Positions 17,709-48,088 of a DNA stretch of 64,000 nt are shown piece by piece. The stretch comes from a virus. Each line of letters begins with the position of its first letter. Position 1 is the stretch's first letter. The notes under the pieces were generated by a model. The model ran no database searches. It was not told the DNA's origin and worked only from the letters and a program-made list of their open reading frames with translations. Where the stretch lies: the IMG/VR virus record IMGVR_UViG_3300001919_000028, positions 1-64,000 of that record, one strand, 5' to 3'. A program made the translations under genes and the position numbers.

Positions 17709-17815
17709 ACAAAAAACACTGTGATGTATAACCGCATTTATTTGTGGTGCTTACCGCCGATGGCGTAAGTGACGAATAGCCGAGAGAAAGAAGGAGTATC
17801 CCCTGAAGGGAGGAG

Positions 17816-17854: not shown

Positions 17855-18113
17855 CCGACCCTCAACTGGCGAGACGACCCACCAGTTCAGACTGGCCAGG
17901 CGACCGAAGACACTCCGCATCTGGGTTCATCCCAAATCCTCTCGACAGATTCACAGAATCTGACCTGACAAATTTCCTTTTACAGGACATCAGATGACCA
18001 GAAACCATACCAGAGGAAGCGCGCACCGCCTCTTCGGATCTGTTTGATAGCTCCAGAAGGCACGCTATATTACTGTCAGATCACAGTGTACCCCCGTTCA
18101 AAGGAGTTTTGCC

Positions 18114-18788
18114 ATGATTTATTTGACTGGCGACACCCATGCCAATCTCGATATTGGCAAGTTAAACACGAAGAATTTTCCACAGCAGAAGGATTTGACC
18201 AAGAACGACTTCCTCATTATCTGCGGAGATTTCGGCCTTGTATGGGACGGCTCCGCGAGAGAAATCTACTGGCAGGACTGGCTGTCATCCAGAAATTACA
18301 CCACCCTGTTCGTAGATGGGAACCACGAAAACTTTGACATCCTCCGCAGAATGCCGCTGAGTGAGAAGTTCGGAGGACAGGTCAGGGAAATCGCGTCGGA
18401 CATCTACCACCTGGAGAGAGGTCAGGTTCTCACCATCGACGGGAAGAAAATATTTGTCATGGGCGGCGCTCGCTCCGTGGATAAGGACGGCCGCATCGAG
18501 CACCTCTCATGGTGGAAAGAAGAAATGCCGGCGATATGGGAGATGGACCGGGCGCTCAGCGCACTGGAGGCCGTCAACTGGGAGGTTGACTATGTGGTTA
18601 CGCACTGCGCCCCACGAAGCGTCCAGCAGATGATATCTCCCTGGTATGAGAACGACCCGATGGTCAGCTTTCTGGAGAGAGTCCGCCAGGACTTGAAGTT
18701 CAAGCGGTGGTACTTCGGCCATTACCACACAGACCGGCAGGTCAACGAACAGTTTATCGCATTATACAATAAGGTAGTCCCTGCGTAG
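18114..18788 (+). CDS. Calcineurin-like metallophosphoesterase
   Basis: GDTHAN…ICGDFG…DGNHEN…GHYH motifs. Confidence 0.8.
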   Translation: MIYLTGDTHANLDIGKLNTKNFPQQKDLTKNDFLIICGDFGLVWDGSAREIYWQDWLSSRNYTTLFVDGNHENFDILRRMPLSEKFGGQVREIASDIYHLERGQVLTIDGKKIFVMGGARSVDKDGRIEHLSWWKEEMPAIWEMDRALSALEAVNWEVDYVVTHCAPRSVQQMISPWYENDPMVSFLERVRQDLKFKRWYFGHYHTDRQVNEQFIALYNKVVPA

Positions 18789-18802
18789 GGGCTGCCTTTT
18801 AT

Positions 18803-18878
18803 GCTGGAGTAATTCAGTTGGTAGAATAGGGCTCTCGTACAGCCAATGTCCCCGGTTCAAGTCCGGGCTCCAGCTCCA
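18803..18878 (+). tRNA. tRNA-Thr (anticodon CGT), CCA encoded
   Basis: Acceptor GCTGGAG/CTCCAGC, anticodon loop CTCGTAC (G27·A43 mismatch), T-loop GGTTCAAGTCC. Confidence 0.7.
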
Positions 18879-18905
18879 CAAACCTCGCCGCCCAGGTTGC
18901 AAGCG

Positions 18906-18932
18906 AACGGTGCCTGCACCGTTGCTGTTTTT
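18906..18932 (+). terminator. Rho-independent terminator (AACGGTGC-ctg-CACCGTT + GCTGTTTTT)
   Basis: Stem-loop plus T-run after the tRNA. Confidence 0.6.
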
Positions 18933-19102
18933 GAGGGTGGCAAGAGTGTGCGGTGGCGAAATTAAAAACGCAGGGAAATGTTAGGAAAGCCCCGTAGTTA
19001 AAGACTGATTGGAAGTAAGGGGCACAGCGGTTCGAAACCCACTAACCTGGGCAGACGTCGGCCCTTGCATGGGTGAAAGTCCCATGCCCGCACACTTGAT
19101 AT

Positions 19103-19170
19103 GCTCTCATAGCTCAAATGGCAGAGCTGGCCTGTAAGGCTGAGTGCAGGTTCAAATCCTGCTGAGAGCG
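19103..19170 (+). ncRNA. Atypical or truncated tRNA-like element (68 nt): good acceptor, D and T arms but shortened anticodon region, no CCA
   Basis: GCTCTCA/TGAGAGC acceptor, T-loop GGTTCAAATCC; anticodon arm does not fold canonically. Confidence 0.35.
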
Positions 19171-19298
19171 AATGCCGGGGGACGCCCCGTCTGTGAAAGC
19201 CGGACGGATCAAAACCGAAAGAGCCGCTCAATTTTGTGAGTGAGGCACAAGCGTGGGTAAGCGGCAATTTGTGAGGCCCACGACCTCACACTTTATTT

Positions 19299-19374
19299 GC
19301 TGGTATAGCTCAGTTGGTAGAGCTGCTGTTTTGTAAGCAGCGGGTCGCGGGTTCGAGTCCTGCTACCAGCTCCA
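19299..19374 (+). tRNA. tRNA-Thr (anticodon TGT), CCA encoded
   Basis: Acceptor GCTGGTA/TACCAGC, anticodon loop TTTGTAA, T-loop GGTTCGAGTCC; preceded by a hairpin plus T-run. Confidence 0.85.
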
Positions 19375-19477
19375 CCGCAGGTTTTGTTCATTTTCCTGCG
19401 GTCACTTCCTTTCTTTGACATATTCCCGCTCGCTTTGTTCATCCGTCAAGCATTGAGGAGTTGATGCTTTCGGTGAA

Positions 19478-19502
19478 ACCGGTTCGAGTCCGGTGTCGGC
19501 TG
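19478..19502 (+). ncRNA. tRNA 3'-fragment (T-arm CCGGTTCGAGTCCGG + acceptor 3' strand), no CCA, no 5' partner
   Basis: Shares a 15-mer with the 11859-11911 minihelix. Confidence 0.35.
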
Positions 19503-19535
19503 AACGTGTGGCGATAACGGGGAACCGACCGCCTA

Positions 19536-19610
19536 TTGGGGCGTAGCCAAGTGGTAAGGCACGGGACTTTGACTCCCGCATCCGCTGGTTCGAGTCCAGC
19601 CGCCCCAGCC
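19536..19610 (+). tRNA. tRNA-Gln (anticodon TTG), U1:A72, CCA encoded
   Basis: Acceptor TGGGGCG/CGCCCCA, anticodon loop CTTTGAC, T-loop GGTTCGAGTCC. Confidence 0.8.
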
Positions 19611-19637
19611 AACCATCTCAATAAGGAGGCAACATCT

Positions 19638-33069: not shown

Positions 33070-34092
33070 ATGACGATTGAACAAATCAAAGAAATGATTG
33101 CCGGGGAGCAGTATGATTTCCTGTGGACGAACCCGCATCTGTCGTACAAAATCATGTTCCTGACCATGGGAGGCAGCTACGCCTACGGAACCAACGTGGA
33201 GACATCTGATGTGGATGTGCGCGGTTGTACGCTCAACAGCAGAAGCGACATCCTTGGCCTGACGAGTTTCGAGCAGGTGGTCCACACGCAGACGGACACC
33301 GTCATCTACTCATTCAACAAGCTGGTCAGCCTCCTGCTGAACTGCAATCCAAACACGATTGAACTTCTCGGCTGCAAGCCGGAGCATTACTTCTTCGTTT
33401 CTCCCATTGGACAGGAGATGATCGACAACAAGAAGATTTTCCTGTCCCGCCGGGCGGCTGAGTCCTTCGGCGGATATGCCACACAGCAGCTTCGCAGGTT
33501 GAAGAACGCCCTCGCCAGGGACAAGATGTCCCAGGCCGACAACGAGGAACATATCCTCGACGCCATGAAGCGGGCGGTCAAGTCTTTCAGGGATAAGTAC
33601 AGCCACTTCGACAAGGGAAGTGTCAGACTGTACACCGCAGACAGTGAGCGGGACGATCTCGACCGCGAGGTTTTCGCTGACATCCACTTGGACAAGTATC
33701 CGGTGCGTGATTTCAGCATTATGATGAACTCCCTCTCCAACGTGATCGGGAACTACGAGAAGCTGAACCACAGGAACCATAAGAAGGACGACGCCCACCT
33801 CAACAAGCACGCCATGCACCTTATCCGGCTGTACCTGATGTGCCTGGATATTTTGGAGAAGGGCGAAATCAACACCTACCGTGCAAACGACAGGGATTTT
33901 CTGCTCAGTATCCGCCACGGATATTTCCAAAAGGAAGACGGTATGTTCCGGCAGGAGTTCTTCGATATTGTGGAGGACTATGAGAAGCGCCTGCAATATG
34001 CAAAGGCGAACACCTCCCTCCCGGACCAGCCGGACATGAAAGTGGTCGGAGAGTTTGTGGAAAGCGTGAACAGGAGGGCGATTGATGAATAG
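33070..34092 (+). CDS. Pol-beta-superfamily nucleotidyltransferase with GS-x3-G-x5-SDxD motif (cGAS/SMODS/MNT-like)
   Basis: GGSYAYGTNVETSDVDVRG motif near the N-terminus; directly upstream of the CCA-adding enzyme. Confidence 0.65.
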   Translation: MTIEQIKEMIAGEQYDFLWTNPHLSYKIMFLTMGGSYAYGTNVETSDVDVRGCTLNSRSDILGLTSFEQVVHTQTDTVIYSFNKLVSLLLNCNPNTIELLGCKPEHYFFVSPIGQEMIDNKKIFLSRRAAESFGGYATQQLRRLKNALARDKMSQADNEEHILDAMKRAVKSFRDKYSHFDKGSVRLYTADSERDDLDREVFADIHLDKYPVRDFSIMMNSLSNVIGNYEKLNHRNHKKDDAHLNKHAMHLIRLYLMCLDILEKGEINTYRANDRDFLLSIRHGYFQKEDGMFRQEFFDIVEDYEKRLQYAKANTSLPDQPDMKVVGEFVESVNRRAIDE

Positions 34093-35422
34093 GTATTCTC
34101 TCCCGCTTGGTGCGGCGTTTATCATTGACCCGCTCCAGGAGAACGGGTTTGAAGCCTATGTGGTCGGCGGCTGTGTGAGAGACAGGCTGCTTGGTCGTGT
34201 CCCGAAGGATTGGGACATCTGCACGTCCGCCTCCCCACAGCAGGTCAAGGAGATCTTTGGCGACAAGCGGGTCATTGAGACCGGTCTCCAGCACGGGACC
34301 GTCACCATCGTGATGCCGGACGGCTTATACGAGGTGACCACCTTCCGAGTAGATGGGACGTACTCCGATAACCGGCACCCGGATGAAGTGAAGTTCGTCA
34401 AAAGCCTGGAGGAAGACCTCGCCCGCCGTGACTTCACTATCAACGCCATGGCCTACAATGACCGGCGCGGTTTGGTAGACCCGTTCGGCGGCGAGAAGGA
34501 CTTGGCCGACGGTGTGATCCGCTGTGTCGGCGATGCAGCCGCCCGCTTCCACGAAGATGGGCTGCGTCTGATGCGGGCTTTGCGGTTTGCCTCCAAGTAT
34601 GGGTTCCGCATCGAAGACGGAACGGCGGAGGCGATCCACAAATGCTCTCACCTGCTCCGGAACATCGCCGTGGAGCGCATCAACACAGAGCTTTGCAGGC
34701 TGTTGTGCGGTAAGAATGTTCTCCAGGTTCTGCTGGACTACCCTGACGTTATCACCGAAATCATCCCGGAGATGAAGCCGTGTGTCGGGTTTCGTCAGAA
34801 CAATAAGTACCACGAGTACAACGTATATGACCACATCGCCCATGCGGTTTCCAACTACACAGGCGAGGACACCGTAGTCAATGTCACGCTTCTGCTCCAC
34901 GACATTGGCAAGCCCAACTGTTACACGGAGGACGAGCGTGGCGGTCACTTCTACGGCCACGGTGTGGTCAGCAGGGACATCGCGGAGGGCGTCCTTACCA
35001 AACTCAGGTTTGATAATCAAACCAAGGCCGATGTACTGGAGCTGGTTCTGTTCCACGACTCAGTCATTGAGCCTACGCCGAAGACGGTACGCAGATGGCT
35101 GAACAAGATTGGCCCGGAGCAGTTCTACCGTCTGCTGGAGGTCAGAATGGCGGACATCCTCGCCCACTCAAAGGATACGCAGGCCAGCAGGATCGAGCGT
35201 TGCAACGCGCTTCGCACCATTGTCGGCGACATCCTTGAACAGCAGCAGTGCTACACCGTCAAGGATCTGGCCGTCAACGGATACGATGTCATGCAGTCCG
35301 GTGTTCCGGAGGGGAAAGAGGTTGGCGCGGCGCTGAACGAAATCCTGGATAAGGTCATCGGCGGCGAGCTTGAAAACGAGCGGTCTGCGCTGCTCGAATA
35401 TCTGTCAAAGCGCAAAGCATGA
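34082..35422 (+). CDS. cca: CCA-adding tRNA nucleotidyltransferase with HD domain
   Basis: Class II NTase head GGCVRDRLLG…DWD, RRDFTINAMA, HD motif LLHDIGKP. Confidence 0.85.
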   Translation: MMNRYSLPLGAAFIIDPLQENGFEAYVVGGCVRDRLLGRVPKDWDICTSASPQQVKEIFGDKRVIETGLQHGTVTIVMPDGLYEVTTFRVDGTYSDNRHPDEVKFVKSLEEDLARRDFTINAMAYNDRRGLVDPFGGEKDLADGVIRCVGDAAARFHEDGLRLMRALRFASKYGFRIEDGTAEAIHKCSHLLRNIAVERINTELCRLLCGKNVLQVLLDYPDVITEIIPEMKPCVGFRQNNKYHEYNVYDHIAHAVSNYTGEDTVVNVTLLLHDIGKPNCYTEDERGGHFYGHGVVSRDIAEGVLTKLRFDNQTKADVLELVLFHDSVIEPTPKTVRRWLNKIGPEQFYRLLEVRMADILAHSKDTQASRIERCNALRTIVGDILEQQQCYTVKDLAVNGYDVMQSGVPEGKEVGAALNEILDKVIGGELENERSALLEYLSKRKA

Positions 35423-35497
35423 CAACCTAAGTTGTCTCCGCGCATTACATACCCACGGTCGCTCAGGCCGTGGGAATTTTCATAAGGAGACGATTTT

Positions 35498-36187
35498 ATG
35501 GCATACACAGAAAAAGACATCAAGTGGTTCACAGAGCATGAGTTGAAGCCGGATGACACTTTCCAGTTCGAGTGTGTCATGTGCGGCAACTGCTGCCGCA
35601 ACCGGAGAGAGCCGATCCTCCTCACAGGAGCCGATGTATTCCGCATCGGAAGGGCGCTGAATACTCCGGTCATCGAGGTCATCCGCAAGAATACGAGGGG
35701 AAACATCGGCGAGCAGTCCCATATTCCGGTCATCACACTCGCCGAGAGGATGGACGGAAGCTGCCGGATGATGCGTAAAGGTAAGTGCATGGTACACAAG
35801 GACAAACCGTCCGCCTGTGCCCTGTTTCCTCTGGGTAGATACTTCGATACACGCGACAACACCTACCATTACTTTGCCAACGAGCATTTCTGCGGCAACG
35901 GCACAAAGTCCGGCAAGACCTGGACGCTCCGTGAGTGGCTCGACGAGTTTCATGTCGATGAATCTATTGATATGACAGCGGCGTGGCACAAGCTCATGCT
36001 TGGTATCACCAATGTGACCTGCCGCATGAAAGAGGATAAGATCCGTGGGGATTTCCTCGCCGAGCTGATGGCGGTTCTGTACCTCAACTACGACATCACC
36101 AAGCCGTACATCCCACAGGTCGAGCAAAACATGAATTTTGCAAAAGCTATTTTCAAAAAGCGGTTCCATAAAGAATTAAAATTCTGA
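35498..36187 (+). CDS. YkgJ-family Cys-cluster (CxxCxxCC) Fe-S/zinc protein
   Basis: CVMCGNCC motif. Confidence 0.55.
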   Translation: MAYTEKDIKWFTEHELKPDDTFQFECVMCGNCCRNRREPILLTGADVFRIGRALNTPVIEVIRKNTRGNIGEQSHIPVITLAERMDGSCRMMRKGKCMVHKDKPSACALFPLGRYFDTRDNTYHYFANEHFCGNGTKSGKTWTLREWLDEFHVDESIDMTAAWHKLMLGITNVTCRMKEDKIRGDFLAELMAVLYLNYDITKPYIPQVEQNMNFAKAIFKKRFHKELKF

Positions 36188-36193
36188 GCGAGA

Positions 36194-36224
36194 AGCCACG
36201 CACCAACCCCGCGTGGCTTTTCTT
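36194..36224 (+). terminator. Rho-independent terminator (AGCCACGC-loop-GCGTGGCT + TTTCTT)
   Basis: Stem-loop plus T tract. Confidence 0.6.
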
Positions 36225-36300
36225 ATCTCTAAATCCGACGGAAAGAACATCAATTCAAAAGAGTTTTTCAGAGCAATCAATGAGGGGTGAGGTGGTTCGT

Positions 36301-36492
36301 ATGGACGACGAGATGGAGCGTGAGATCTATATTGATATCTCTTCAAACGCTCCGATCAGCATTGCACGACTTCGCTCTATTTTGCTGTACTGCGAAACAC
36401 TTGCCAGAAACCTTGGGGATGGCGGAGAACATCTTGCCTATATCTTAAATGGTGTCGCGCTTCTCCCTTATACAGACGACGGATCATTTTAG
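36301..36492 (+). CDS. Hypothetical protein
   Basis: ORF. Confidence 0.4.
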   Translation: MDDEMEREIYIDISSNAPISIARLRSILLYCETLARNLGDGGEHLAYILNGVALLPYTDDGSF

Positions 36493-36503
36493 GAGGTGGG
36501 TCT

Positions 36504-36944
36504 ATGAGCGCAGACTACTGGATTATTACAGGTGTCGGAATCGACACAGATGGACTTTACCCGTTCATTGATAAAGCAAAGGTCGCAAAGCTGCTGCTGG
36601 AGCAATTCACAGACGATGAAGAGCTCGTCCAAATGGTTGCTGACGGTGACTACGATGGCCTGGATGTCGATAATTTTGTGGACGGCGAGCCGTTCAACTG
36701 TCTCGCAGATATGTTTACCTTCTGCGATGACACGGACTCCCTCACTTATGGGGATGACGGCGCGGGGAAATCGTTCCTCTATTACCCGCCGTCATTGCCG
36801 TGGCAAAGGGCAGACAACGAACCGGAAACTCTCCAGGAAGTTCACAAGCGACTCATTGATGCGGTGAAAAAGCTCACGACCCTGGCAGACTCAGAAATCG
36901 AGTCCATGATCGACGATGATTTATACGTCGTCGGATACGATTAA
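36504..36944 (+). CDS. Hypothetical acidic protein
   Basis: GGAGGTGGG RBS. Confidence 0.5.
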   Translation: MSADYWIITGVGIDTDGLYPFIDKAKVAKLLLEQFTDDEELVQMVADGDYDGLDVDNFVDGEPFNCLADMFTFCDDTDSLTYGDDGAGKSFLYYPPSLPWQRADNEPETLQEVHKRLIDAVKKLTTLADSEIESMIDDDLYVVGYD

Positions 36945-36956
36945 GGCGGTGGTTTT

Positions 36957-37508
36957 ATGCTGCGAATTGCAAACGCATATGAGGCAGAATTGCGGCAGTT
37001 GCTTGCCGAGGCGAGCATTGACCCGAAGTATATGTACTACTTCACCCAGCCGGGCGGCGGCTACTTCGACATGGAACTCAACAACAACACCGTGTGGGGC
37101 CACCACTTCGTGAGCCTTGATAAGGACGGCAAGGTCATCGGGTATCTCTCATACCGGGTAGACGCCTTTGCACGGAGCGTGAGCAGCTTTGGGCTTATCA
37201 GCTTCGACATCGGCAATCAGACCTTCATCCGTGATACATACAATGCCATCGCCGATATCTTCGAGAAGTACCACATGAACCGCATGGAATGGTACGCCGT
37301 CGTGGACAACCCGGTCACAAAATCTTACAGGAGAGTCTGTAAAAAGATGGGCGGCAGAGAGTGCGCCTACGAACGGCAGGCGGTGCAGCTTCTTGACGGG
37401 AAGCTCCACGACTCGGTAGCCTTCGAGGTTCTGGCTGAGGAGTATTTCCAGTCTGAGTTCTATAAGCAGCACCTAAAGCGGATGGCAAAGCAAGCAGACA
37501 AGGAGTAA
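36957..37508 (+). CDS. Hypothetical protein, possibly GNAT-like acetyltransferase fold
   Basis: Weak resemblance only. Confidence 0.4.
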   Translation: MLRIANAYEAELRQLLAEASIDPKYMYYFTQPGGGYFDMELNNNTVWGHHFVSLDKDGKVIGYLSYRVDAFARSVSSFGLISFDIGNQTFIRDTYNAIADIFEKYHMNRMEWYAVVDNPVTKSYRRVCKKMGGRECAYERQAVQLLDGKLHDSVAFEVLAEEYFQSEFYKQHLKRMAKQADKE

Positions 37509-37512
37509 ACCT

Positions 37513-37740
37513 ATGACACTCAGAAACATCCTCCCTGATCGGAGAGTGGACATCATGGTCCGCACAAATCTGCCGCCTGCGTTCCATGGCGGCGATACGC
37601 TGTTCGGTTACTGCCGGTGGCACGGCAACAGCCTTGAATCTCTCGACGGCGATTCTTATGACATCGACTGGGAGATCACAAAGTTTGAGTGGGAGAGCGA
37701 GAACTCCCTTGTAGTTTGGATTGAAAGTGAATGGTGGTGA
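37513..37740 (+). CDS. Hypothetical protein
   Basis: ORF. Confidence 0.4.
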   Translation: MTLRNILPDRRVDIMVRTNLPPAFHGGDTLFGYCRWHGNSLESLDGDSYDIDWEITKFEWESENSLVVWIESEWW

Positions 37741-37744
37741 ACGT

Positions 37745-37954
37745 ATGAACCAACAGATAGGATTGCCTCCTATGATTTGCAACGGTCTGCGTAGGAAGTA
37801 TTTCGTGTGCCCGATCTGCGACTGGGAAGTCGGCGGATATGTCATCACCGGCCCAGGTGACGATGACTGGGATACGCATATGGATAAGTTCTGCTGCCAG
37901 TGCGGTCAGAAAATCGACTGGAGCCATATAAATTTCCAAGACATCAACCATTAG
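37745..37954 (+). CDS. Small zinc-finger protein
   Basis: CPICDW…CCQCG. Confidence 0.45.
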   Translation: MNQQIGLPPMICNGLRRKYFVCPICDWEVGGYVITGPGDDDWDTHMDKFCCQCGQKIDWSHINFQDINH

Positions 37955-37966
37955 GGGTGACGCCTT

Positions 37967-38170
37967 ATGAACCGGTACATCAAAGGTAAGGGGATTTTGG
38001 TCGGCACATTCTCGATGGCTGACCTGAACGCCGGAAAGGATACAGAGGCTGTGATGGCCGCCGAGGAGGAGACAGGTCTGCGTTACACAAACACAGAACT
38101 GGTGTGCTCAAAAGGCAACATTGTAGGCTTGCGTGTCTATGTTTGCACGCTGGACGATATGAAAATTTAG
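37967..38170 (+). CDS. Hypothetical protein
   Basis: ORF. Confidence 0.4.
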   Translation: MNRYIKGKGILVGTFSMADLNAGKDTEAVMAAEEETGLRYTNTELVCSKGNIVGLRVYVCTLDDMKI

Positions 38171-38181
38171 GAGGTAGCCAC

Positions 38182-38553
38182 ATGAAGTTTGAAGAGTACC
38201 CTGTGACCACGGATGACCAGGGTTTTCGCTGGGTAAAGAACGGGGTCATGGTTGGTGATACCGAGTGTGGGTGCCTGACCTGCGGTAAGCCAACAAAGTA
38301 CATCGAGGTCTGCTCGGAGAGCCACTTCTGCAGCGACGAGTGCGTGGACGAGTTTTACCGCCAGCACGACCGCATCGTAGAGCAGGACGAAATCCTCTGG
38401 AACCTGTTGGCGAAACACAGAGGGCACAATGTTTCCATCGTGTCCTACGGAGACCCTGACAACCCCGCAGATATCTGCCTCGAATGTGAGGACTGCTGCG
38501 AAGTAATCCTTGACGCTGAGATCTACACCATCTGTGCGAGAGAGGATGTGTGA
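38182..38553 (+). CDS. Cys-rich hypothetical protein
   Basis: AGGAGG RBS; CGC…CxxC…CxxC clusters. Confidence 0.5.
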   Translation: MKFEEYPVTTDDQGFRWVKNGVMVGDTECGCLTCGKPTKYIEVCSESHFCSDECVDEFYRQHDRIVEQDEILWNLLAKHRGHNVSIVSYGDPDNPADICLECEDCCEVILDAEIYTICAREDV

Positions 38554-38557
38554 CAAC

Positions 38558-38833
38558 ATGAATGCAGAATTGATACGGCTCGCCAATAAAGCCGCCGATT
38601 CCTGGCAGGGAACGGACGCATATCATCAGGCTTCCGAAATCATCAAGATGCTTATCAATGAGTGTAAGAACCAGGATAAGCAGTACCGCGAGGCCAAAGA
38701 GACGATTGAGTTCATCATGGGTTCGCAGAAATTCTGCGCTCTGTGCAGCAACCTTGCCTGCAAAAACAGCACCACGGGAGAGGTTGGGTGCGAACCAATG
38801 TGGTCTGGCCGTGCGCCGTGGAGGTTGGTTTAG
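38558..38833 (+). CDS. Hypothetical protein
   Basis: ORF. Confidence 0.45.
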   Translation: MNAELIRLANKAADSWQGTDAYHQASEIIKMLINECKNQDKQYREAKETIEFIMGSQKFCALCSNLACKNSTTGEVGCEPMWSGRAPWRLV

Positions 38834-38834
38834 A

Positions 38835-39098
38835 ATGAAATTCTTAAAAGAGCTTGACAGCCGTATGACCGATAGCGAGCTCAAGCCATCCGATATCCTG
38901 GTGATGGCGGCCATGATATTTCTGGCGATACTGGTTATTTTCGCGCTCATTGGATCGCTGATTGGAGCTATCTTCGTTTTAATTTTCGCGCTTTATACCA
39001 GTAATCTGGCCAATCTCCTCATGCTCATACCCTGTGCGATCATCTTTTCTATCTTGCTTGCGATTGCGCTATATGCTGGGATAAACTCAGGTTTTTAA
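38835..39098 (+). CDS. Small two-transmembrane-helix membrane protein (low GC)
   Basis: Hydrophobic; lower GC. Confidence 0.5.
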   Translation: MKFLKELDSRMTDSELKPSDILVMAAMIFLAILVIFALIGSLIGAIFVLIFALYTSNLANLLMLIPCAIIFSILLAIALYAGINSGF

Positions 39099-39112
39099 GG
39101 AGGTGTTGCGAC

Positions 39113-39361
39113 ATGGTGCTGATTGACGTAGAGCATATCCCATATGAAAACGGATTTGACAGAGTCAACGGCGACGAGAACTTCATCATGGGTATCGAAT
39201 CAATGCAAGAATGGATTCGACAGCAACCTGTTGTCGATGCGGTCCATGTTGTTCGGTGCAAGGATTGTAAGTTTAGAGATGGTACTCCAGGCCAACCGAA
39301 TATCTTGTGTTACCAGATGCGCGATGATGATTTTTGCAGTTATGGTGAACGGAAAGAATGA
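39113..39361 (+). CDS. Hypothetical protein
   Basis: AAGGAGG RBS. Confidence 0.45.
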   Translation: MVLIDVEHIPYENGFDRVNGDENFIMGIESMQEWIRQQPVVDAVHVVRCKDCKFRDGTPGQPNILCYQMRDDDFCSYGERKE

Positions 39362-39373
39362 AAGCTGGAACTT

Positions 39374-39817
39374 ATGAAAGGTACAATAACGCCACCAACA
39401 GAGAAACAGGTTAAGGCTGCTGAAATCATAGCAAAGAAACTTCATTTGAACCTGCCGGAAGAGAAGTCAAAGGCCGCTTATTGGGAGTTTATCTCGAAGA
39501 ATATGGCGGCCTCAAAATGTGTCAAACGCCATAACAGGTATAGCTGCACAGCGAAATACGCCAGCAGAAGTACCACATATACTCAGCGCGAGACGGACTG
39601 GGAAGCTATCCATTTATCTCCCGACACATGGGCGGAGAGAATTATGGATGGGAAAACAATCCCGCCAAGCTGGGCCAACGAGTCTCTCCAACAGGCGCAG
39701 AGGCGACTGCGATCTCTCGGATATAAGAGCAGTCTTGAAAAAGAGAACGAGCAGCTCAGGGAGAGATTATCAGGGTGTTATGGTCTTGAGGGCGCCATGG
39801 ATATGTGGGGTTACTAA
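39374..39817 (+). CDS. Hypothetical protein
   Basis: ORF. Confidence 0.5.
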   Translation: MKGTITPPTEKQVKAAEIIAKKLHLNLPEEKSKAAYWEFISKNMAASKCVKRHNRYSCTAKYASRSTTYTQRETDWEAIHLSPDTWAERIMDGKTIPPSWANESLQQAQRRLRSLGYKSSLEKENEQLRERLSGCYGLEGAMDMWGY

Positions 39818-39842
39818 AGCTGGGATAGTTTGGAGGTAAATC

Positions 39843-40217
39843 ATGATGGAGCGCACCATAAACCAATATATGGAAAGAGTAACCGCAACAGAAAACTGCG
39901 GAAATAAGCGCCTTTACTATATTGGAGATAGATTCCTCGTGATCGTATCCACTTACGCCCCTGACCCTAAAATTATGGGGTGTTTTAAGCGACATGGATA
40001 TATCAAAGAGATACCAAGCATGGCTTTTGCGGTACACACATACTACACAGACGAAAGTGGTAAATGCTGGGAGCGATACAATATCACCCTCAATCCCAGC
40101 GACGACGGTAAGCATCAAGTTATCAACCCCTATTTTCTGCGGGAGGCGACACCGGAAAACGAACGCGAGCTTGTGGCTGGGTGCATCCGCCTGGCCGTTG
40201 AAGCTGGAGCAATATAA
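39843..40217 (+). CDS. Hypothetical protein
   Basis: GGAGG RBS. Confidence 0.5.
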   Translation: MMERTINQYMERVTATENCGNKRLYYIGDRFLVIVSTYAPDPKIMGCFKRHGYIKEIPSMAFAVHTYYTDESGKCWERYNITLNPSDDGKHQVINPYFLREATPENERELVAGCIRLAVEAGAI

Positions 40218-40229
40218 AAGCAAAGGTCT

Positions 40230-40460
40230 ATGGAGGTAATTTTGGATAAGGAAATCGAAGAGCTCTTTGTAGTCGAGGCGGATATCATACCGACAGAATT
40301 GTTTTTACACCTTGTAGAAAAGGGTTCCATCAATGGCTATGATGGCATCGGTTACTTCCACGACGGGACTAAAGAGACTAATGTTGAGGTGTATTGCTAT
40401 CCGGATTATGTTAGTCGATATGTCGATATCTATCCATATGTCTGCTGGTATGGGAAATGA
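40230..40460 (+). CDS. Hypothetical protein
   Basis: ORF. Confidence 0.4.
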   Translation: MEVILDKEIEELFVVEADIIPTELFLHLVEKGSINGYDGIGYFHDGTKETNVEVYCYPDYVSRYVDIYPYVCWYGK

Positions 40461-40492
40461 AAGTTTAGTTTCAAGCGGGATGGGGGTAGGCA

Positions 40493-40888
40493 ATGAAGAT
40501 AGAGGAAGCAATCGAGGTTCTGGAAAATGGAGAGTGGTTTGAAGCATATTGTACCTTGCCATCGAAAGATGTCCCAGATAACGAGGAATTTTGCGAGGCG
40601 CTTGATATGGCGGTTGTCGCCCTCCGCGCCCAGCAGGAGACTGGAAAGAACGAACCACTGACAGAGACAGAGCTGATGCAAATGGTGGGACATCCCATCT
40701 GGATTATGCCTACGGCAAATGCACCAGATCGTCTCGATTGGGACCCTGCGTGGGTTATCATGCGTGAGGACTATGTGTTTGTCGATTCAAAGTCGCATGA
40801 AAGCAGGGCGTATATACGTTTTGTGAAGGATTACGGGAAAACGTGGATTGCCTACCGCAACCCACCCGAAGGAGATGATAGCTTATGA
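40493..40888 (+). CDS. Hypothetical protein
   Basis: ORF. Confidence 0.5.
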   Translation: MKIEEAIEVLENGEWFEAYCTLPSKDVPDNEEFCEALDMAVVALRAQQETGKNEPLTETELMQMVGHPIWIMPTANAPDRLDWDPAWVIMREDYVFVDSKSHESRAYIRFVKDYGKTWIAYRNPPEGDDSL

Positions 40889-41265
40889 GATACAAAGTCT
40901 TTGACACCGTCGCCAAACAGTACATCACCGACGACCGCTTGATTCTCAAGCCAGATGGCCGCCTCGCTTTGAATGACTACGGTGATGAAATCGGGCTCCC
41001 TAATTGTATCGCCATGTTCTATCCAACTGACGCGGATGATAACTGGATAGATGAAGTCGGTGGGACGCATGACTCAGGAACGGGGTGGGACCCGGACGGG
41101 AATTTTTGCGGCGAGTGTTACGGTGCCAGTTGCAGAACCTGTGGTGTATGGAAGCCAAACAGTTCCACACTGGCCGCACTAATCGACAAATTTGCGAATA
41201 CAGCCACCGGGTATCCTGTGACACCAGAGGAATTGCGGCACGCTCTCAACGACGAGAAAGTGTGA
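40885..41265 (+). CDS. Hypothetical Cys-containing protein
   Basis: ORF. Confidence 0.5.
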   Translation: MRYKVFDTVAKQYITDDRLILKPDGRLALNDYGDEIGLPNCIAMFYPTDADDNWIDEVGGTHDSGTGWDPDGNFCGECYGASCRTCGVWKPNSSTLAALIDKFANTATGYPVTPEELRHALNDEKV

Positions 41266-41269
41266 GTTT

Positions 41270-41452
41270 ATGAAAGCAAAAAGCAATATATTGCCGACCT
41301 TTATTTATTGCCTATGCGTGTCCAGTTTTGCTGTTATGATGGCAGATTCCGGATACAGCATCAAAACCTTGGAGTTTTGGTTTGGCCTCTTGTGTATTAT
41401 CGTTGCTCGTGAGTGCGGTGAGAAAATCCAAAAGGACAGAATGAAAGGCTGA
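41270..41452 (+). CDS. Small membrane protein
   Basis: Hydrophobic. Confidence 0.4.
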   Translation: MKAKSNILPTFIYCLCVSSFAVMMADSGYSIKTLEFWFGLLCIIVARECGEKIQKDRMKG

Positions 41453-41457
41453 TTCGT

Positions 41458-41709
41458 ATGGTAGACAAGAAAACATGGGACGAGTTCCGGCAAAGCGGTC
41501 TGCTGTGGTTCATCAATACGATCCTCCATGCGTTCGGTTGGGCAATCTGCGTCGAGCTGGACGACAACGGCTCAACCGTGAGCGCATTTCCGGCGAGAGT
41601 GAAATATCGTGGGTTCTCCCTGGACTGCAACGAGGCCGGTTACAGGAAGGTTTCGCAATACCTCAAGGACAATATAGACAGCATCTACTCAGACGCTATG
41701 GAAGAGTAA
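41458..41709 (+). CDS. Hypothetical protein
   Basis: ORF. Confidence 0.45.
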   Translation: MVDKKTWDEFRQSGLLWFINTILHAFGWAICVELDDNGSTVSAFPARVKYRGFSLDCNEAGYRKVSQYLKDNIDSIYSDAMEE

Positions 41710-41725
41710 ACCGGGAGGGCTGCCA

Positions 41726-42217
41726 ATGTACAAGTACATCGCTACATACAAGGAAGACCTATCCGCCATCGGTTTTGGCGACGAGCTGCAGTTCGACTAC
41801 GACCCAAGCGATGGGTGCCTGCGGGTATCTGTTTTCAAGGATAACCATTGGCAGGATGAAACCGTGATACGTCTGCCGGAGCTGTTTATCGGAGAGGACA
41901 GCCGTTCCGGTGTGCCGGCAAATAAGCCCAAACACCCTGCTGCCAACCGTGTTTCTGTTGGGAGCATCGTTATGACGAAGAACTGCCTCGATGTAGGCAT
42001 CGTCGGTGCCGTTTCCAATGGCAGACCAACCAAGGTCTATGCGAGATACAATCCCTACTCCGCCAATGAGAGCGGCTTTCCGCAGTATGGCGGAGCGGAC
42101 ACTACGGATTGGTACGACACGGGGTACAAGATGACGATGGAACAGTGGAAGCTCCTTGCGATAGAGAAGAAGGACGCGATGGGCTTCTATCAGTATTGGA
42201 GGAATAGGCTGCTGTGA
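41726..42217 (+). CDS. Hypothetical protein
   Basis: ORF. Confidence 0.5.
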   Translation: MYKYIATYKEDLSAIGFGDELQFDYDPSDGCLRVSVFKDNHWQDETVIRLPELFIGEDSRSGVPANKPKHPAANRVSVGSIVMTKNCLDVGIVGAVSNGRPTKVYARYNPYSANESGFPQYGGADTTDWYDTGYKMTMEQWKLLAIEKKDAMGFYQYWRNRLL

Positions 42218-42417
42218 GAGATCCGGACAGGCTGTATTCGTTCTACGAAAAACTCAGGGACATTCACATCAAGTGTTTCCCGGACTGGCGCTTCGGTCAG
42301 TTCTGCTACAACTTCTTCTGCTGGCTGGTTTCAGAGAAGGGACTTGACCCGTTCTTCCCGGAGGAAGATGAAATCCTCAAATACATCGGAGAGTTTTCCG
42401 GAAATAAGGTGGTGTAG
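42214..42417 (+). CDS. Hypothetical protein
   Basis: ORF. Confidence 0.4.
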   Translation: MRDPDRLYSFYEKLRDIHIKCFPDWRFGQFCYNFFCWLVSEKGLDPFFPEEDEILKYIGEFSGNKVV

Positions 42418-42420
42418 CCT

Positions 42421-42966
42421 ATGATTGTCGTTAATCTCTACGGCGCTCCCGGAGCCGGTAAGTCAACCGGGGCGGCCTACGTCTTCTCGCAGTTGAAGAT
42501 GCGCGGCGTCAACGCCGAGCTCGTCACAGAGTTCGCCAAAGACAAGGTGTGGGAGGAGAGCAAGGCCGCGTTCCAGAACCAGGCATATATCTTCGGGAAA
42601 CAGTATTTCAGAATCAGCAGACTGCAGGATAAGGTGGACGTGGTTGTCACGGACTCACCTATCCTGCTTTCGTGTTTCTATGGCAAAGATGACCCCAGGC
42701 TTGGGGAGGAGTTCGACGCCCTTGTCAGGAAAGTGTCCGGCTACTACACCTCCCTCAATGCCTTCATTGACAGGGTGAAGCCCTACAACCCGGCAGGCCG
42801 CTTCCAGACAGAGCAGGAGAGCGACGAGGTCGCCAAGAGCCTTGCCAAGCTGCTGGACGAATACGGTGTTACGGTCAAGCACTATCCGGGAAATATGCAG
42901 GGGTACGGCGACCTGATCGAAGACGTTCTCAAAATGCTGGAAGGACAGGAACATGGAAAATACTGA
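42421..42966 (+). CDS. P-loop NTPase, putative (poly)nucleotide kinase
   Basis: Walker A GAPGAGKST at the N-terminus, about 180 aa kinase-like; adjacent to the RNA ligase. Confidence 0.55.
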   Translation: MIVVNLYGAPGAGKSTGAAYVFSQLKMRGVNAELVTEFAKDKVWEESKAAFQNQAYIFGKQYFRISRLQDKVDVVVTDSPILLSCFYGKDDPRLGEEFDALVRKVSGYYTSLNAFIDRVKPYNPAGRFQTEQESDEVAKSLAKLLDEYGVTVKHYPGNMQGYGDLIEDVLKMLEGQEHGKY

Positions 42967-43149
42967 TAGGTTTTGTCCGCTGCTCAAGACGCAGTGCCTC
43001 AAAAGGGAGTGCGCCTGGTTTGAGCCGGTGATGGAGTGCTGCTGGGCGATCAGGAACGAGGTTTTGAGAGAGCGGGAAAGCACTGTCCTGAGACAACTCC
43101 AGCAAACAGTGCTTATGCCAATCAACTTTGGAGAAAAGGAGAATGACCA

Positions 43150-43785
43150 ATGATTGAGTACACAAAAATCAGTACCATCTACAATCGCAGTACGGAGGGT
43201 CGGAAGAAGCTGATCGAAGGTTCGTTCTGCGACGAGACCGTGGAGTTCCTCAAGGACAATCAGTGGGTCTGTACCGAGAAAATCGACGGCACAAACGTCG
43301 GCATCGTGTGGGACGGCCACCGCGTGACCTACCAGGGCCGCACTGAGACCTCTCAGATCCCCGCCCCCCTGCTTAACAAGCTCATTGAGATGTTCGGTGG
43401 TGACGCCAACGAGGAGCTGTTCGAGCAGAAGTTCGGAGATATGCCCGTCGTCCTGTTTGGCGAGGGGTACGGCCCCAAGATCCAGAGCGGTCACCACTAC
43501 CGCAGCGACCCGTCTTTCATCCTGTTCGATGTGTACCTTCCCAACAGCCACCTGTGGCTCAAGCGGGACGCCATCGAGGACATCGCTAAGACCTTCGGCA
43601 TTGATGCGGTTCCTGTTATCATGGTTGGCACACTGGATGAAGCGGTCGCCTATGTGAAGAGCAAGCCCAAATCCACCATTGGTACGGCCAATATGGAGGG
43701 CTTGGTCTGTAAGCCGCTTGTCGATATGCTTGACCGCCGTGGCCGCCGCGTTATCGTCAAGGTCAAAGTCAAGGACTTCGAGTGA
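43150..43785 (+). CDS. ATP-dependent RNA ligase (Rnl2-like)
   Basis: Motif I KIDGTN (compare T4 Rnl2 KIHGTN), EGLVCK (IV), KVKVK (V). Confidence 0.75.
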   Translation: MIEYTKISTIYNRSTEGRKKLIEGSFCDETVEFLKDNQWVCTEKIDGTNVGIVWDGHRVTYQGRTETSQIPAPLLNKLIEMFGGDANEELFEQKFGDMPVVLFGEGYGPKIQSGHHYRSDPSFILFDVYLPNSHLWLKRDAIEDIAKTFGIDAVPVIMVGTLDEAVAYVKSKPKSTIGTANMEGLVCKPLVDMLDRRGRRVIVKVKVKDFE

Positions 43786-44398: not shown

Positions 44399-45001
44399 AT
44401 GGCCTATTTGAGTATTTCAAAGGGTAACTCCAAGCTCGGAGCAATCCCCAGTGTGTCTCTGCCGGCGGTTTTGACGTGCCGGCACTGCGCCTGTCAGAGC
44501 AAGTGCTACGCAAGAAAGCTGGAGCGGATTCGCCCGTCTGTGGCGAACGCTTACCGGAACAACCTGAAAGTTCTGCAGGAAGATCCTGATACATACTGGC
44601 GGGAGGTCGAGGCAGCGATCATGATGTCTCGGTTCTTCCGCTTCCATGTTTCTGGCGACATTCCGGACGAGACGTACTTCATCAGGATGGTGGAGGTCGC
44701 CAAGCGGAATCCGCACTGCCAGATTTTGTGCTTCACCAAGAAATATGAAATCGTCAATGACGCCGTGGCAGGCGGGTGCGAGATTCCCGACAATCTACAT
44801 ATCATTTTCAGCGCTTGGGTTGGCCTGCAGATGGTCAATCCTTTTTCATTCCCAGAAGCACACGTCCGTTACCGTGACGGATCTACGACAGCGGCTCCTG
44901 ACGCCCTCGCCTGCGGTGGAAACTGCACAGAGTGCGCCATCACAGATGGTGGATGCTGGACGCTGCAGGAGGGTGGGCAGGTGGTATTCGATGAACACTG
45001 A
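44399..45001 (+). CDS. Hypothetical Cys-rich protein
   Basis: ORF. Confidence 0.5.
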   Translation: MAYLSISKGNSKLGAIPSVSLPAVLTCRHCACQSKCYARKLERIRPSVANAYRNNLKVLQEDPDTYWREVEAAIMMSRFFRFHVSGDIPDETYFIRMVEVAKRNPHCQILCFTKKYEIVNDAVAGGCEIPDNLHIIFSAWVGLQMVNPFSFPEAHVRYRDGSTTAAPDALACGGNCTECAITDGGCWTLQEGGQVVFDEH

Positions 45002-46075: not shown

Positions 46076-46354
46076 ATGGATACATATGTAGTAAAATCAG
46101 TGGAGCCGAGAGAGGGTAAATGCCTGCGGTATCTCCACCAGGAGGTGCTTGACCGCGAGTGCTACATCAAGGAGCTGGAGCCGGGCCAGCGGGCAACCAT
46201 CATGGTCAAGTTTGATTATGACCCGCAGCGTTTCCACCGCCTGCACACGTCCTCTGTCGAGTCGGTCAACGACCTGGAGAACGGCGGAAAGGAAATCGTT
46301 ACCCTGAATACGGTCTACACGCTGTGGCCTATCCAGGAGGCCGGCCATGAGTAA
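46076..46354 (+). CDS. Hypothetical protein
   Basis: ORF. Confidence 0.45.
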   Translation: MDTYVVKSVEPREGKCLRYLHQEVLDRECYIKELEPGQRATIMVKFDYDPQRFHRLHTSSVESVNDLENGGKEIVTLNTVYTLWPIQEAGHE

Positions 46355-46913
46355 GTTCTACATCGCAGACTGGCATTACGGCCACAAGAATGTCCTCGCG
46401 TTCGACAACAGGCCGTTCACGACTGTGGAGGAAATGAACGAAGCCCTCGTGAAGAACTGGAACGACGCGGTAAAGCCTGACGACATCGTGTATGTTCTTG
46501 GCGATATGTTCTGGTGCAAGTCAACGGAAGCGGTTCCTGTTCTTGATAAGCTGAACGGCGTCAAATTCCTGATTCGCGGGAACCACGACAGAAGCAACGA
46601 CAGCCGCTTCATCAAGAAATTCGCCAAAGTCACCGATTATCTTGAGGTCGAAGACAATAGCCGCCATGTGGTTCTCTGCCACTACCCCATCCCGTGCTAT
46701 AAGAACCACTTCTACGGGTGGTATCATCTCTACGGCCATGTCCACACGTCGTTCGAGTACAACATGATGGAGCACGACAAGGTTCTCATGAGTGCGCTGT
46801 ACAGCAGGCAGTGCCGGATGTTCAATGTCGGCGCGATGATTCCCTATATGGGTTATACACCGAGGACGCTGGACGAGATCCTCGCGGCAAATCAGGAGGA
46901 GGGAACGACATGA
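46347..46913 (+). CDS. Calcineurin-like metallophosphoesterase (second copy)
   Basis: DWHYGH…GDMF…GNHD…GHVH motifs. Confidence 0.8.
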   Translation: MSKFYIADWHYGHKNVLAFDNRPFTTVEEMNEALVKNWNDAVKPDDIVYVLGDMFWCKSTEAVPVLDKLNGVKFLIRGNHDRSNDSRFIKKFAKVTDYLEVEDNSRHVVLCHYPIPCYKNHFYGWYHLYGHVHTSFEYNMMEHDKVLMSALYSRQCRMFNVGAMIPYMGYTPRTLDEILAANQEEGTT

Positions 46914-48088
46914 TTTATCTTGACAACGCTGCCACCACGAAAGTGGCACCGGAAGTCCTGGATACGATGCTCCCCTATTTCAGCGAGCAGTACGGCAACG
47001 CCGGAACGATATACGGGTTTGGCCTCAGCGCAAGAGCGGCGATGGATAAAGCCCGCGAGCAAACAGCCAGACTTTTCTCGTGCCAGCCGACGAATGTGAT
47101 TTTCACGTCCGGCGGCAGCGAGGGGAACAACATGATCATCAAGGGTCTGCGCCGCCATCTTCTGGAGAGCGGCAAGACTCACATCATTCTGTCCGCGACG
47201 GAGCATGACTCCGTGCTCCATGCCGCCCAGACGCTTACCAAAGACGGGTTTTATCTCACATTGGTAAAGCCGGGTCAGGACGGCAGCATTTCTGCGGAAA
47301 TCGTGGAGAAAGAGATCCGCCCGGATACGGGCCTCGTCTCCATCATGTACGCCAACAACGAGACCGGCGCTGTCAACGACATCGAAGCCATCGGCCTGCT
47401 GTGTGAGCGCCGCTCAATTCTGTTCCATTCCGATTGTGTACAGGCCGCCGGGCAGTTTTCCATCGACGTGGACAAGCTCAACCTGGACTTTGCAACGGTA
47501 TCCTCTCATAAAATACATGGTCCGAAGGGAGTCGGTGCGGTTTTCGTAAGAACCCCCGGCCTGCTGGAGCCGCTGATCAACGGAGGTTCGGAGCAGGAGT
47601 TCGGGCTTCGCGGCGGAACGGAGAATGTGCCGGGAGTCGTAGGCTTTGGTAAGGCTTGCGAGCTCGCGGTTGACAACATGAAAGAGAATATGATTGCGGT
47701 CACTTCGAACAAGCAGTTTTTCGTCCGGTCTCTGCTTGACGACCTGCCGTATGACAGCCTGCAGGAAGCGGGCATCCACTACAACGGATATACATATATC
47801 GACCCAGGTAAAGTCGTGAACCTGCGTATTGACAATGTGTCCGGCGACACACTGGTTTTGATGATGGGCGCGTTTGGCGTCTGCATCTCTGCCGGTTCCG
47901 CCTGCCGGTCGCATGAAGCCGAACCGAGCCACGTTTTGCTCGCCAATGGCCTGACGCCGGATGAAGCGAGGAGCAGCGTGCGGATTTCGTTCTCGAAGTA
48001 TGATACGCAGGAGGAACTTCGGGAGGCGGCCAGGATCATGGCCAACTGTATCGAGACCTTACGGGCGTCCACTCCGCCGGAGGATTGA
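46910..48088 (+). CDS. Cysteine desulfurase (class V aminotransferase, IscS/NifS-like)
   Basis: PLP-lysine region SSHKIHGPKG and catalytic Cys loop SAGSACRS; GGAGGG RBS. Confidence 0.85.
   Translation: MIYLDNAATTKVAPEVLDTMLPYFSEQYGNAGTIYGFGLSARAAMDKAREQTARLFSCQPTNVIFTSGGSEGNNMIIKGLRRHLLESGKTHIILSATEHDSVLHAAQTLTKDGFYLTLVKPGQDGSISAEIVEKEIRPDTGLVSIMYANNETGAVNDIEAIGLLCERRSILFHSDCVQAAGQFSIDVDKLNLDFATVSSHKIHGPKGVGAVFVRTPGLLEPLINGGSEQEFGLRGGTENVPGVVGFGKACELAVDNMKENMIAVTSNKQFFVRSLLDDLPYDSLQEAGIHYNGYTYIDPGKVVNLRIDNVSGDTLVLMMGAFGVCISAGSACRSHEAEPSHVLLANGLTPDEARSSVRISFSKYDTQEELREAARIMANCIETLRASTPPED

Follow-up and report, generated by a model that had tools for sequence, protein, structure and literature searches.

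The window analysed here, a stretch of 64,000 nucleotides corresponding to positions 1 to 64,000 of the IMG/VR virus record IMGVR_UViG_3300001919_000028, is part of a larger phage genome (source contig 85 kb, gut metagenome). It encodes a Pol-beta nucleotidyltransferase of the RlaP family followed by a CCA-adding tRNA nucleotidyltransferase, together with two metallophosphoesterases (MPE1 and MPE2), a minimal RNA ligase, a P-loop kinase, a cysteine desulfurase, two cysteine-rich proteins and a group of tRNA genes (Table 1). An initial annotation of this DNA had named six of these open reading frames (ORFs), namely a Pol-beta nucleotidyltransferase with a GS...SDxD motif directly before the CCA gene, a full class II CCA-adding enzyme with an HD domain, a Walker A kinase, an RNA ligase with KIDGTN as its motif I, and two calcineurin-like phosphoesterases; all six are present on the plus strand, at the positions and with the motif reported for each. 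Their assignments are matches at curated family thresholds and not chance motifs, and long antisense ORFs such as that at 42655-43941 on the minus strand are artefacts of the 53% G+C content, with the family matches falling on plus-strand ORFs. We favour, with moderate confidence, the view that the phage carries a loosely organised set of RNA-end repair enzymes directed chiefly at tRNA 3′ ends, with the RlaP-CCA pair as its core and the P-loop kinase outside it.

By megablast, positions 33000-48100 of the window gave no match to GenBank phages, and the phage is without a close cultured relative. Homologues occur in metagenome-assembled genomes or genomes of Oscillospiraceae, Lachnospiraceae and other Clostridia, and the source is an uncultivated gut phage of Clostridia that is probably temperate.

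Table 1. Repair-related genes and their neighbours in the 64-kb window, with the family matches on which each assignment is based.
Feature	Positions	Strand	Evidence
Long RlaP-family Pol-beta nucleotidyltransferase, divergent, 340 aa	33070..34092	+	PF10127, PHROG 388
Class II CCA-adding tRNA nucleotidyltransferase with HD domain	34085..35422	+	Pfam, NF009814
MPE2, calcineurin-like metallophosphoesterase	46347..46913	+	Metallophos E 1.6e-6, PHROG 547 E 1.4e-45
MPE1, metallophosphoesterase among tRNA genes	18114..18788	+	Metallophos E 1.7e-12, PHROG 1649 E 2.7e-38
Minimal ATP-dependent RNA ligase, Rnl2-like nucleotidyltransferase domain, 211 aa	43150..43785	+	RNA_ligase PF09414 E 2.9e-22
AAA_28 P-loop kinase, judged outside the repair set	42421..42966	+	Walker A GAPGAGKST, PF13521 E 5e-9
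Eight tRNA genes: Glu-UUC, Lys-UUU, Ala-UGC, Ser-UGA, Pro-UGG, Thr-CGU, Thr-UGU, Gln-UUG	2164..19611	+	ARAGORN, Rfam
NifS/IscS-type cysteine desulfurase	46910..48088	+	TIGR03402 E 3.4e-111, below equivalog cut-off
CxxCxxCC cysteine-rich metal-binding protein, possible accessory	35498..36187	+	PF03692 E 5.3e-07
GP88-family cysteine-rich protein	44399..45001	+	PF17338 E 1.4e-24

The nucleotidyltransferase upstream of the CCA gene contains the core motif hG[GS]x9-13Dx[DE] (GGSYAYGTNVETSDVDV) and matches the Pfam family PF10127, named 'RNA repair pathway DNA polymerase beta family', at 64.3 bits (cut-off 23; E 1.8e-17), as well as PHROG 388 at E 1.4e-53. PF10127 is carried by all of the best 120 of more than 7600 homologues, and the placement of the protein among RNA-repair enzymes in the initial annotation agrees with these matches. 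In an AlphaFold2 model, the C-terminal domain of the protein is helical and there is also a terminal helix, as described for PfRlaP. The Pseudomonas RlaP adds one or two untemplated nucleoside monophosphates to RNA 3′-OH ends in vitro and prefers mimics of broken tRNA as its substrate; activity is known for PfRlaP and PaRlaP only, with T4 NrdC.11 a further member of the family (PMC12776372). The phage protein is predicted to extend RNA 3′-OH ends by one or two untemplated nucleotides. The RNA-repair genes found near RlaP in relatives are Thg1, metallophosphoesterase, KptA, RtcB or ligase genes, and related phages combine RlaP with KptA, RtcB and NrnB. A PDB sequence search with the protein returned nothing, in a PDB set without the PfRlaP crystal structure.

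The downstream enzyme matches the Pfam families PolyA_pol (the head domain, E 4.4e-40), PolyA_pol_RNAbd, HD and tRNA_NucTran2_2, and scores 315.3 bits against the NCBIfam CCA equivalog NF009814, above the cut-off of 290. The head motifs GGCVRD, RRDFTINA and EDGLR are found in its translation, and the HD domain (residues 251-331, E 2.7e-5) has an intact H..HD..D signature (DHIAH, LLLHD, LFHD). The HD domain presumably has the phosphohydrolase activity of its E. coli counterpart. The ORF as listed begins with a TTG at 34082; an ATG start lies at 34085, within the last codons of RlaP, whose stop codon, TAG, occupies 34090-34092. A Shine-Dalgarno sequence, AGGAGG, is found at 34071-34076, 8 nucleotides before this ATG, and a hairpin lies 3′ of the CCA gene. 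The RlaP and CCA genes are thus joined at an overlapping junction and are translationally coupled.

The arrangement is widely conserved. From viral loci (numbered with the prefix L) pooled from ligase, RlaP, CCA and MPE2 protein seeds, we took the 115 with a full-length CCA homologue and clustered them at 70% CCA identity. RlaP lies directly upstream of the CCA gene and overlaps it in 80 of the 115, spread across all 11 clusters; the overlap is 11 nucleotides in most loci measured, and the overlapping pair is kept across CCA divergence to about 49% identity. An ORF of about 940 bp sits between the two genes in 14 loci, encoding a protein of 320 residues with no Pfam match (for example, L042 9046-10008). 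RlaP is missing from 21 loci, and in at least two, L058 and L074, the RNA 2′-phosphotransferase KptA/Tpt1 is found upstream of the CCA gene in its place. In a phage of Acinetobacter that is unrelated to these, RlaP and a tRNA nucleotidyltransferase lie 2.3 kb apart. On chromosomes of Clostridia (Anaerocolumna, Enterocloster and Butyrivibrio), the long form of RlaP instead overlaps a downstream canonical RlaP of 253 residues. Because the long RlaP overlaps a CCA enzyme in phages and a canonical RlaP in Clostridia, it is habitually paired with a second Pol-beta nucleotidyltransferase, and the bacterial pairing hints at a two-enzyme complex. Such pairs occur at L274 7992-9772, L326 7953-9781 and L289 7992-9780, the canonical partner matching PF10127 at 300 bits; in L274, an AbiEii-like AAA_21 ATPase is among the neighbours of the pair, as is a kinase of the APH family.

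A phage with its own tRNA genes might keep a CCA enzyme for their maturation. The initial annotation counted eight or more such genes, and ARAGORN finds eight, to which Rfam adds an aberrant ninth. This tRNA-like element (19103-19170, 49 bits), missed by ARAGORN, encodes no CCA; its acceptor, D and T arms are good, and its anticodon arm, around GUA, is aberrant. In the same tRNA-rich region, the small RNAs RAGATH-16 (188-259, 85 bits) and RAGATH-36 (3550-3677, 103 bits) match above their Rfam gathering scores. The 3′ CCA, read from the sequence of the 3′ ends, is genomically encoded in all eight ARAGORN genes, and the CCA enzyme is thus not needed for their maturation, which favours a role in repair. 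In E. coli, too, tRNA genes encode CCA and the CCA enzyme serves repair. We therefore disfavour a requirement of the enzyme for phage tRNA maturation. A broader housekeeping role, in which RlaP and the CCA enzyme mature or quality-control phage tRNAs or boost CCA turnover without reversing damage from host defences, is unlikely as well. The tRNA-like element without an encoded CCA would suit it, as would the co-occurrence of tRNA genes and a CCA enzyme in many large phages (PMC7824862); against this, untemplated addition and the preference of RlaP for mimics of damaged tRNA (PMC12776372) have no place in normal maturation, and Thg1, KptA, phosphoesterases and ligases accompany the RlaP-CCA pair.

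Among these companions is the phosphoesterase MPE2. A homologue lies directly 3′ of the CCA gene in L024, L025, L030, L084, L086 and L089, and in 25 of 57 MPE2-seeded loci MPE2, NifS, RlaP and CCA follow one another in a contiguous block, Thg1 being close by on its upstream side. The position of NifS between MPE2 and RlaP is conserved (L122-L167), and in the window MPE2 and NifS overlap by 4 nucleotides. After de-replication at 85% identity, MPE2 and NifS are adjacent in 6 of 19 clusters, and GP88 and MPE2 in 4 of 19. The recurrence of MPE2, NifS, GP88 and Thg1 near RlaP-CCA in varied orders supports a functional link, and MPE2 is a candidate RNA 3′-end phosphoesterase. Both phosphoesterases of the initial annotation are Metallophos proteins, and its inclusion of them in a repair set holds for MPE2, which is repeatedly contiguous with RlaP-CCA in relatives, while MPE1 is a candidate. 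In several relatives, MPE1 and RlaP-CCA are no more than 10 kb apart, and an MPE1-GP88 pair lies upstream of RlaP in L025, L026, L030 and L033. For jumbo phages, enzymes of the calcineurin-like and HD types have already been listed as phosphatases that occasionally serve RNA repair (PMC7824862).

The cysteine-rich proteins recur in the same surroundings. RlaP and GP88 are adjacent in L003; a PF03692 gene lies near GP88-MPE2-NifS in L113, L119 and L125, and directly 3′ of the ligase in L020-L022 (L020 9065-9451; L021 8639-9043). PDB sequence searches with the GP88 and CxxCxxCC proteins returned nothing. As a reason for the presence of NifS, a thiouridylase of the PP-loop type was considered and rejected, the motif SGGxDS occurring in the window only in NadE. 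The tRNAs Lys-UUU, Glu-UUC and Gln-UUG are those that carry 2-thiouridine at position 34 (s2U34).

The ligase is placed in the RNA-ligase family by its motif I, EKIDGTN, and by its Pfam match. Its best PDB match is T4 Rnl2 residues 1-249 (E 1.2e-5), against which motifs I, III, IIIa, IV and V align as EKIDGTN, FGEGYG, FILFD, EGLVCKP and VKVKVK. The protein ends a few residues past motif V, covering PHROG 548 at positions 3-233 of 341. The earlier designation 'Rnl2-type' therefore stands for the nucleotidyltransferase domain, in which all motifs are present, and fails for the remainder, as the Rnl2 C-terminal domain is absent and TIGR02307 scores 47 bits, far below its cut-off of 197. The short form is the norm of the family, nearly all of the 120 best homologues being 210-213 residues long and one 226. 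A second ligase gene, at 24533-25825, encodes an ATP-dependent DNA ligase that has an OB domain, which makes an RNA role for the short ligase coherent. In relatives, the ligase gene is found 5 kb from RlaP-CCA (L018), abutting the cluster for nicotinamide adenine dinucleotide (NAD) metabolism (L003) or before the CxxCxxCC gene (L020-L022). A conserved partner supplying the C-terminal domain in trans was sought and rejected, as no ORF family is shared across the 11 ligase loci save the CxxCxxCC protein (L020 and L021).

The identities, motifs, gene coupling and conserved neighbourhoods described above are direct observations; several points weigh against their assembly into one repair set. Only the N-terminal half of the nucleotidyltransferase matches the RlaP profile (positions 18-141 of 249), and by BLASTP it aligns with canonical RlaP and T4 NrdC.11 over the nucleotidyltransferase core only, with 32% identity to canonical RlaP across 53 residues. 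MPE2 lies 11 kb from RlaP-CCA in this window, and its best PDB match is the uncharacterised Aquifex protein aq_1665. The ligase has no conserved neighbour, occurs within 10 kb in none of 88 RlaP- or CCA-seeded viral loci, and, without a C-terminal domain, may need a partner for nick sealing. The N-terminal domain of T4 Rnl2 alone is not known to seal 3′-OH/5′-phosphate nicks. A polynucleotide kinase (Pnk) could also be encoded beyond the 64-kb window, within the larger genome. Lastly, the genes of this arm are strongly shuffled from one relative to the next, and for this reason proximity alone is weak evidence.

This shuffling is what would be expected if there were no functional unit at all but only unrelated auxiliary genes that share an early or accessory arm with the NAD-salvage, DNA ligase and Macro genes, and the ligase and the kinase indeed have no conserved partners within the set. 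We nonetheless consider this improbable, since the overlapping RlaP-CCA pair is retained down to about 49% CCA identity and MPE2, NifS, GP88 and Thg1 recur beside the pair in several lineages, whatever their order.

A further alternative is the one advanced in the initial annotation, which read the genes as the component list of Pnkp/Hen1-like or T4 Pnk-plus-Rnl repair. In such a pathway, the kinase would phosphorylate 5′-OH ends, a metallophosphoesterase would clear 2′,3′-cyclic or 3′-phosphates, and the ligase would seal the breaks that PrrC/RloC-type nucleases make in anticodon loops. The kinase gene, a 66-residue ORF (42953-43153) and the ligase gene overlap end to end in this phage and are translationally coupled, an arrangement also present in near-identical strains. 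In sister strains with 98-99% nucleotide identity, the kinase-ligase pair has a HAD_SAK_2 RNA-repair phosphatase gene 1 kb upstream, and three tRNAs of the set, Lys-UUU, Glu-UUC and Gln-UUG, are classic targets of anticodon nucleases. The kinase-ligase coupling, however, is limited to the near-identical strains, and nearly all genes here are packed likewise. The HAD_SAK_2 protein, which is of the 'Swiss-army-knife' type and carries a DYDGVVNT motif (L251 331-813, L252 805-1287; Pfam E 8e-21), was found only in these two sister strains, whereas the window has stand-alone metallophosphoesterases. At the corresponding site, the window contains an unrelated segment of about 280 bp (approximately 41154-41430), a strain-level indel. 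The presence of this phosphatase in sister strains counts in favour of an RNA-repair set as such and leaves the full pathway a small residual chance.

The kinase itself argues against such a pathway. Although it is a Walker A protein (GAPGAGKST) of Pfam family AAA_28, as annotated, its fold neighbours are the NadR ribosylnicotinamide kinase and thymidylate and deoxynucleoside kinases, with T4 Pnk not in the top 60. Its homologues number more than 4000, of which the best 120 are 65-98% identical to it. We surveyed the context of homologues at 53-72% identity in 80 viral loci: 57 carry a deoxynucleoside triphosphate (dNTP) cluster, ThyX-DNMK-NT5C-NrdD-NrdG-(Y07B)-kinase-dUTPase; the kinase is fused to dUTPase in a single protein in 17; it follows the NAD cluster (NadE) in 3; and the ligase is nearby in only 1. 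In the fusions (for example, L199 6001-7005, L203 6001-7026 and L212 5983-6996), the N-terminal 174 residues are the kinase homologue and the C-terminal half is the dUTPase. In the relatives nearest to this phage by RlaP and CCA (one contig holding loci L023 and L189, another holding L031 and L190), the kinase lies beside NrdG, far from RlaP-CCA, and it is present in none of the 11 ligase loci of other phages. On the plus strand of the window there is no DxDxT motif of HAD phosphatases and no other small Walker A protein; of a Hen1 partner, no methyltransferase family was found among the ORFs scanned in 33-48 kb, where no unannotated ORF is large enough.

On fold neighbours, dNTP context and dUTPase fusions, we reject the assignment of the kinase as a Pnk and judge it to act on small molecules, as a nucleoside or nucleotide kinase, in dNTP (or NAD) metabolism. 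Judged from fold and gene context, this comes close to the refutation that the initial annotation had set for its own proposal, which named a kinase proving to be a deoxynucleoside monophosphate kinase together with a ligase acting only on DNA nicks. The protein could yet be a kinase for nicotinamide riboside that belongs to the NAD cluster of the phage, with NadR the top fold match and the kinase following NadE in the 3 loci noted above; dNTP context and dUTPase fusions dominate, and we commit only to a small-molecule nucleoside or nucleotide kinase. With no 5′-kinase in the window, the window cannot alone heal the 5′-OH ends left by PrrC/RloC-type nucleases, its component list for heal-and-seal repair is incomplete, and we regard a full pathway of that kind as having little probability. 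The AAA_28 kinase, widespread in gut phages, should not be annotated as Pnk for an adjoining ligase.

Least credible of all is that the nucleotidyltransferase is a cGAS/SMODS/CD-NTase-type signalling enzyme, as the initial annotation suggested it could be, or an antibiotic/MNT-type enzyme: the Pol-beta motif is generic enough to allow it, but Pfam places the protein in the RlaP family, no PADLOC model matches it at E 0.01 or better, all listed homologues belong to PF10127 and the conserved partner is a tRNA enzyme, so that by sequence it is a divergent RlaP-family RNA-repair enzyme and not a SMODS/CD-NTase signalling enzyme.

The arm that holds these genes is an accessory, putative counter-defence arm, and it holds several other genes. 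A block for NAD+ salvage or reconstitution at 20435-24476, encoding a PncA-like isochorismatase, a protein like phosphoribosyl pyrophosphate synthetase, a NAMPT-like protein and NadE, is kept whole in many relatives and abuts the RNA ligase directly in L003; we take it to resemble the NAD-reconstitution pathways of phages (NARP1-like). A ThiF-like E1 protein (14300-15055) is followed by a retron-type reverse transcriptase (16440-17708; PADLOC RT_II-A, E 5e-44), a pair also seen in L003 and L025. Between the NAD block and RlaP are a Macro protein (27003-27467), an SPFH/Band7 protein (27657-28556) and an ECF S-component (30590-31144), and in L023, L026 and L033 Band7 and RlaP are no more than a few kb apart. 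A lysogeny-like block comprises a repressor with a CI-type helix-turn-helix and an S24 domain (50699-51556, minus strand), a PemK/MazF-like endoribonuclease toxin (52195-52683), a protein with an MrpR-type recombinase core-binding domain (52703-53656) and an HD-domain protein (53723-54307).

Returning to the repair set centred on RlaP-CCA, we infer its substrates, the order of its steps and a role in counter-defence. A host nuclease or toxin would first damage tRNA ends. One or both stand-alone metallophosphoesterases, or the HD domain of the CCA enzyme, would clear blocking groups of the 3′-phosphate type; RlaP would restore nucleotides lost past the reach of the CCA enzyme; and the CCA enzyme would rebuild C74-C75-A76. 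The separate minimal Rnl2-like ligase would seal breaks already bearing a 3′-OH and a 5′-phosphate.

The pair also suggests a more specific role, which we offer tentatively and as a speculation: RlaP-CCA, often placed after a phosphoesterase and Thg1, may be a dedicated module that rebuilds tRNA tails, by which phages would survive immune systems directed at tRNA 3′ ends and destroying them. The repair of tail damage would require the addition of one or two nucleotides together with a CCA enzyme, and the coupled pair, often joined by a phosphoesterase, would provide this. After a nuclease had removed N73 and the CCA, RlaP would restore the discriminator base, after which the CCA enzyme would re-add CCA, while ends bearing a phosphate or pyrophosphate, for instance from toxSAS/CapRel, would be cleared by the phosphoesterase or HD domain. 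Two kinds of defence create such damage. Cas12a3, described in January 2026, cuts tRNA tails 2-4 nucleotides from the 3′ end, with the ACCA tail bound in the post-cleavage structure; its authors state that spare phage tRNAs cannot evade tail cutting and that viral resistance mechanisms are unknown (PMC12851939). The toxSAS/CapRel defences pyrophosphorylate CCA ends (PMC9712102). Against the proposal, the characterised Cas12a3 comes from a Bacteroidetes bacterium, not from Clostridia, and nothing found here links these phages to hosts with Cas12a3.

tRNA is a major target of antiviral immunity, by anticodon nucleases, PARIS, retron effectors, toxSAS/CapRel and Cas12a3, and the known answers of phages are spare tRNAs and heal-and-seal repair of the T4 type. 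Widespread and tightly coupled in gut phages of Clostridia, the RlaP-CCA pair points to a third route, the rebuilding of the acceptor 3′ end. It is a testable candidate for resistance to tail-cleaving defences, and it hints at an enzyme with which the newly characterised RlaP enzymes would naturally work.

In comparison with known systems, the set varies a phage counter-defence that is already known and falls short of a complete repair pathway in the style of T4. RNA-repair sets of large phages have already been described, and the coupling of RlaP to a CCA enzyme is the modestly new part; in the literature consulted, which did not include Burroughs and Aravind (2016), we found no description of tight RlaP-CCA coupling, of NifS within the block or of a long RlaP with a second nucleotidyltransferase. 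The closest parallel is the repair complement of jumbo and large phages (Iyer et al. 2021, PMC7824862), in which RlaP, an ATP-dependent RNA ligase, a CCA enzyme, calcineurin-like or HD phosphoesterases and tRNAs likewise occur in one phage and are read as a counter to host attack on tRNA. Unlike the jumbo phages, this is a smaller phage (85-kb source contig, with related contigs of up to a few hundred kb) from the gut, associated with Clostridia and probably temperate; its RlaP is coupled to a CCA enzyme rather than placed beside the ligase, there is no Pnk and no HAD phosphatase in the window, and NifS lies inside the conserved block.

The individual enzymes compare in a similar manner. Like the RlaP of the Pseudomonas rtcB-rlaP-rtcA operon and T4 NrdC.11 (PMC12776372), the phage protein belongs to PF10127, is associated with RNA-repair genes and, in its AlphaFold2 model, combines a nucleotidyltransferase domain with a helical C-terminal domain; it differs in being a divergent, 340-residue 'long' subfamily form in which only the nucleotidyltransferase core can be aligned. 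The CCA enzyme shares with the E. coli class II enzyme its head, neck and body domains and an HD domain with intact H..HD..D, as well as cognate tRNA genes that all encode CCA, hence a probable repair role; its best NCBIfam match, however, is the Bacillus-type NF009814, and the E. coli-type NF008137 falls far below its cut-off. With T4 Pnkp and Rnl1/Rnl2, the system has in common phage-encoded tRNA repair and a ligase with all of the Rnl2 nucleotidyltransferase-domain motifs, whereas this window has no Pnk-type kinase, no DxDxT phosphatase and no Rnl2 C-terminal domain on its ligase. Its emphasis is on extension of the 3′ end, in contrast to T4, which has no CCA enzyme and in which NrdC.11 is unlinked.

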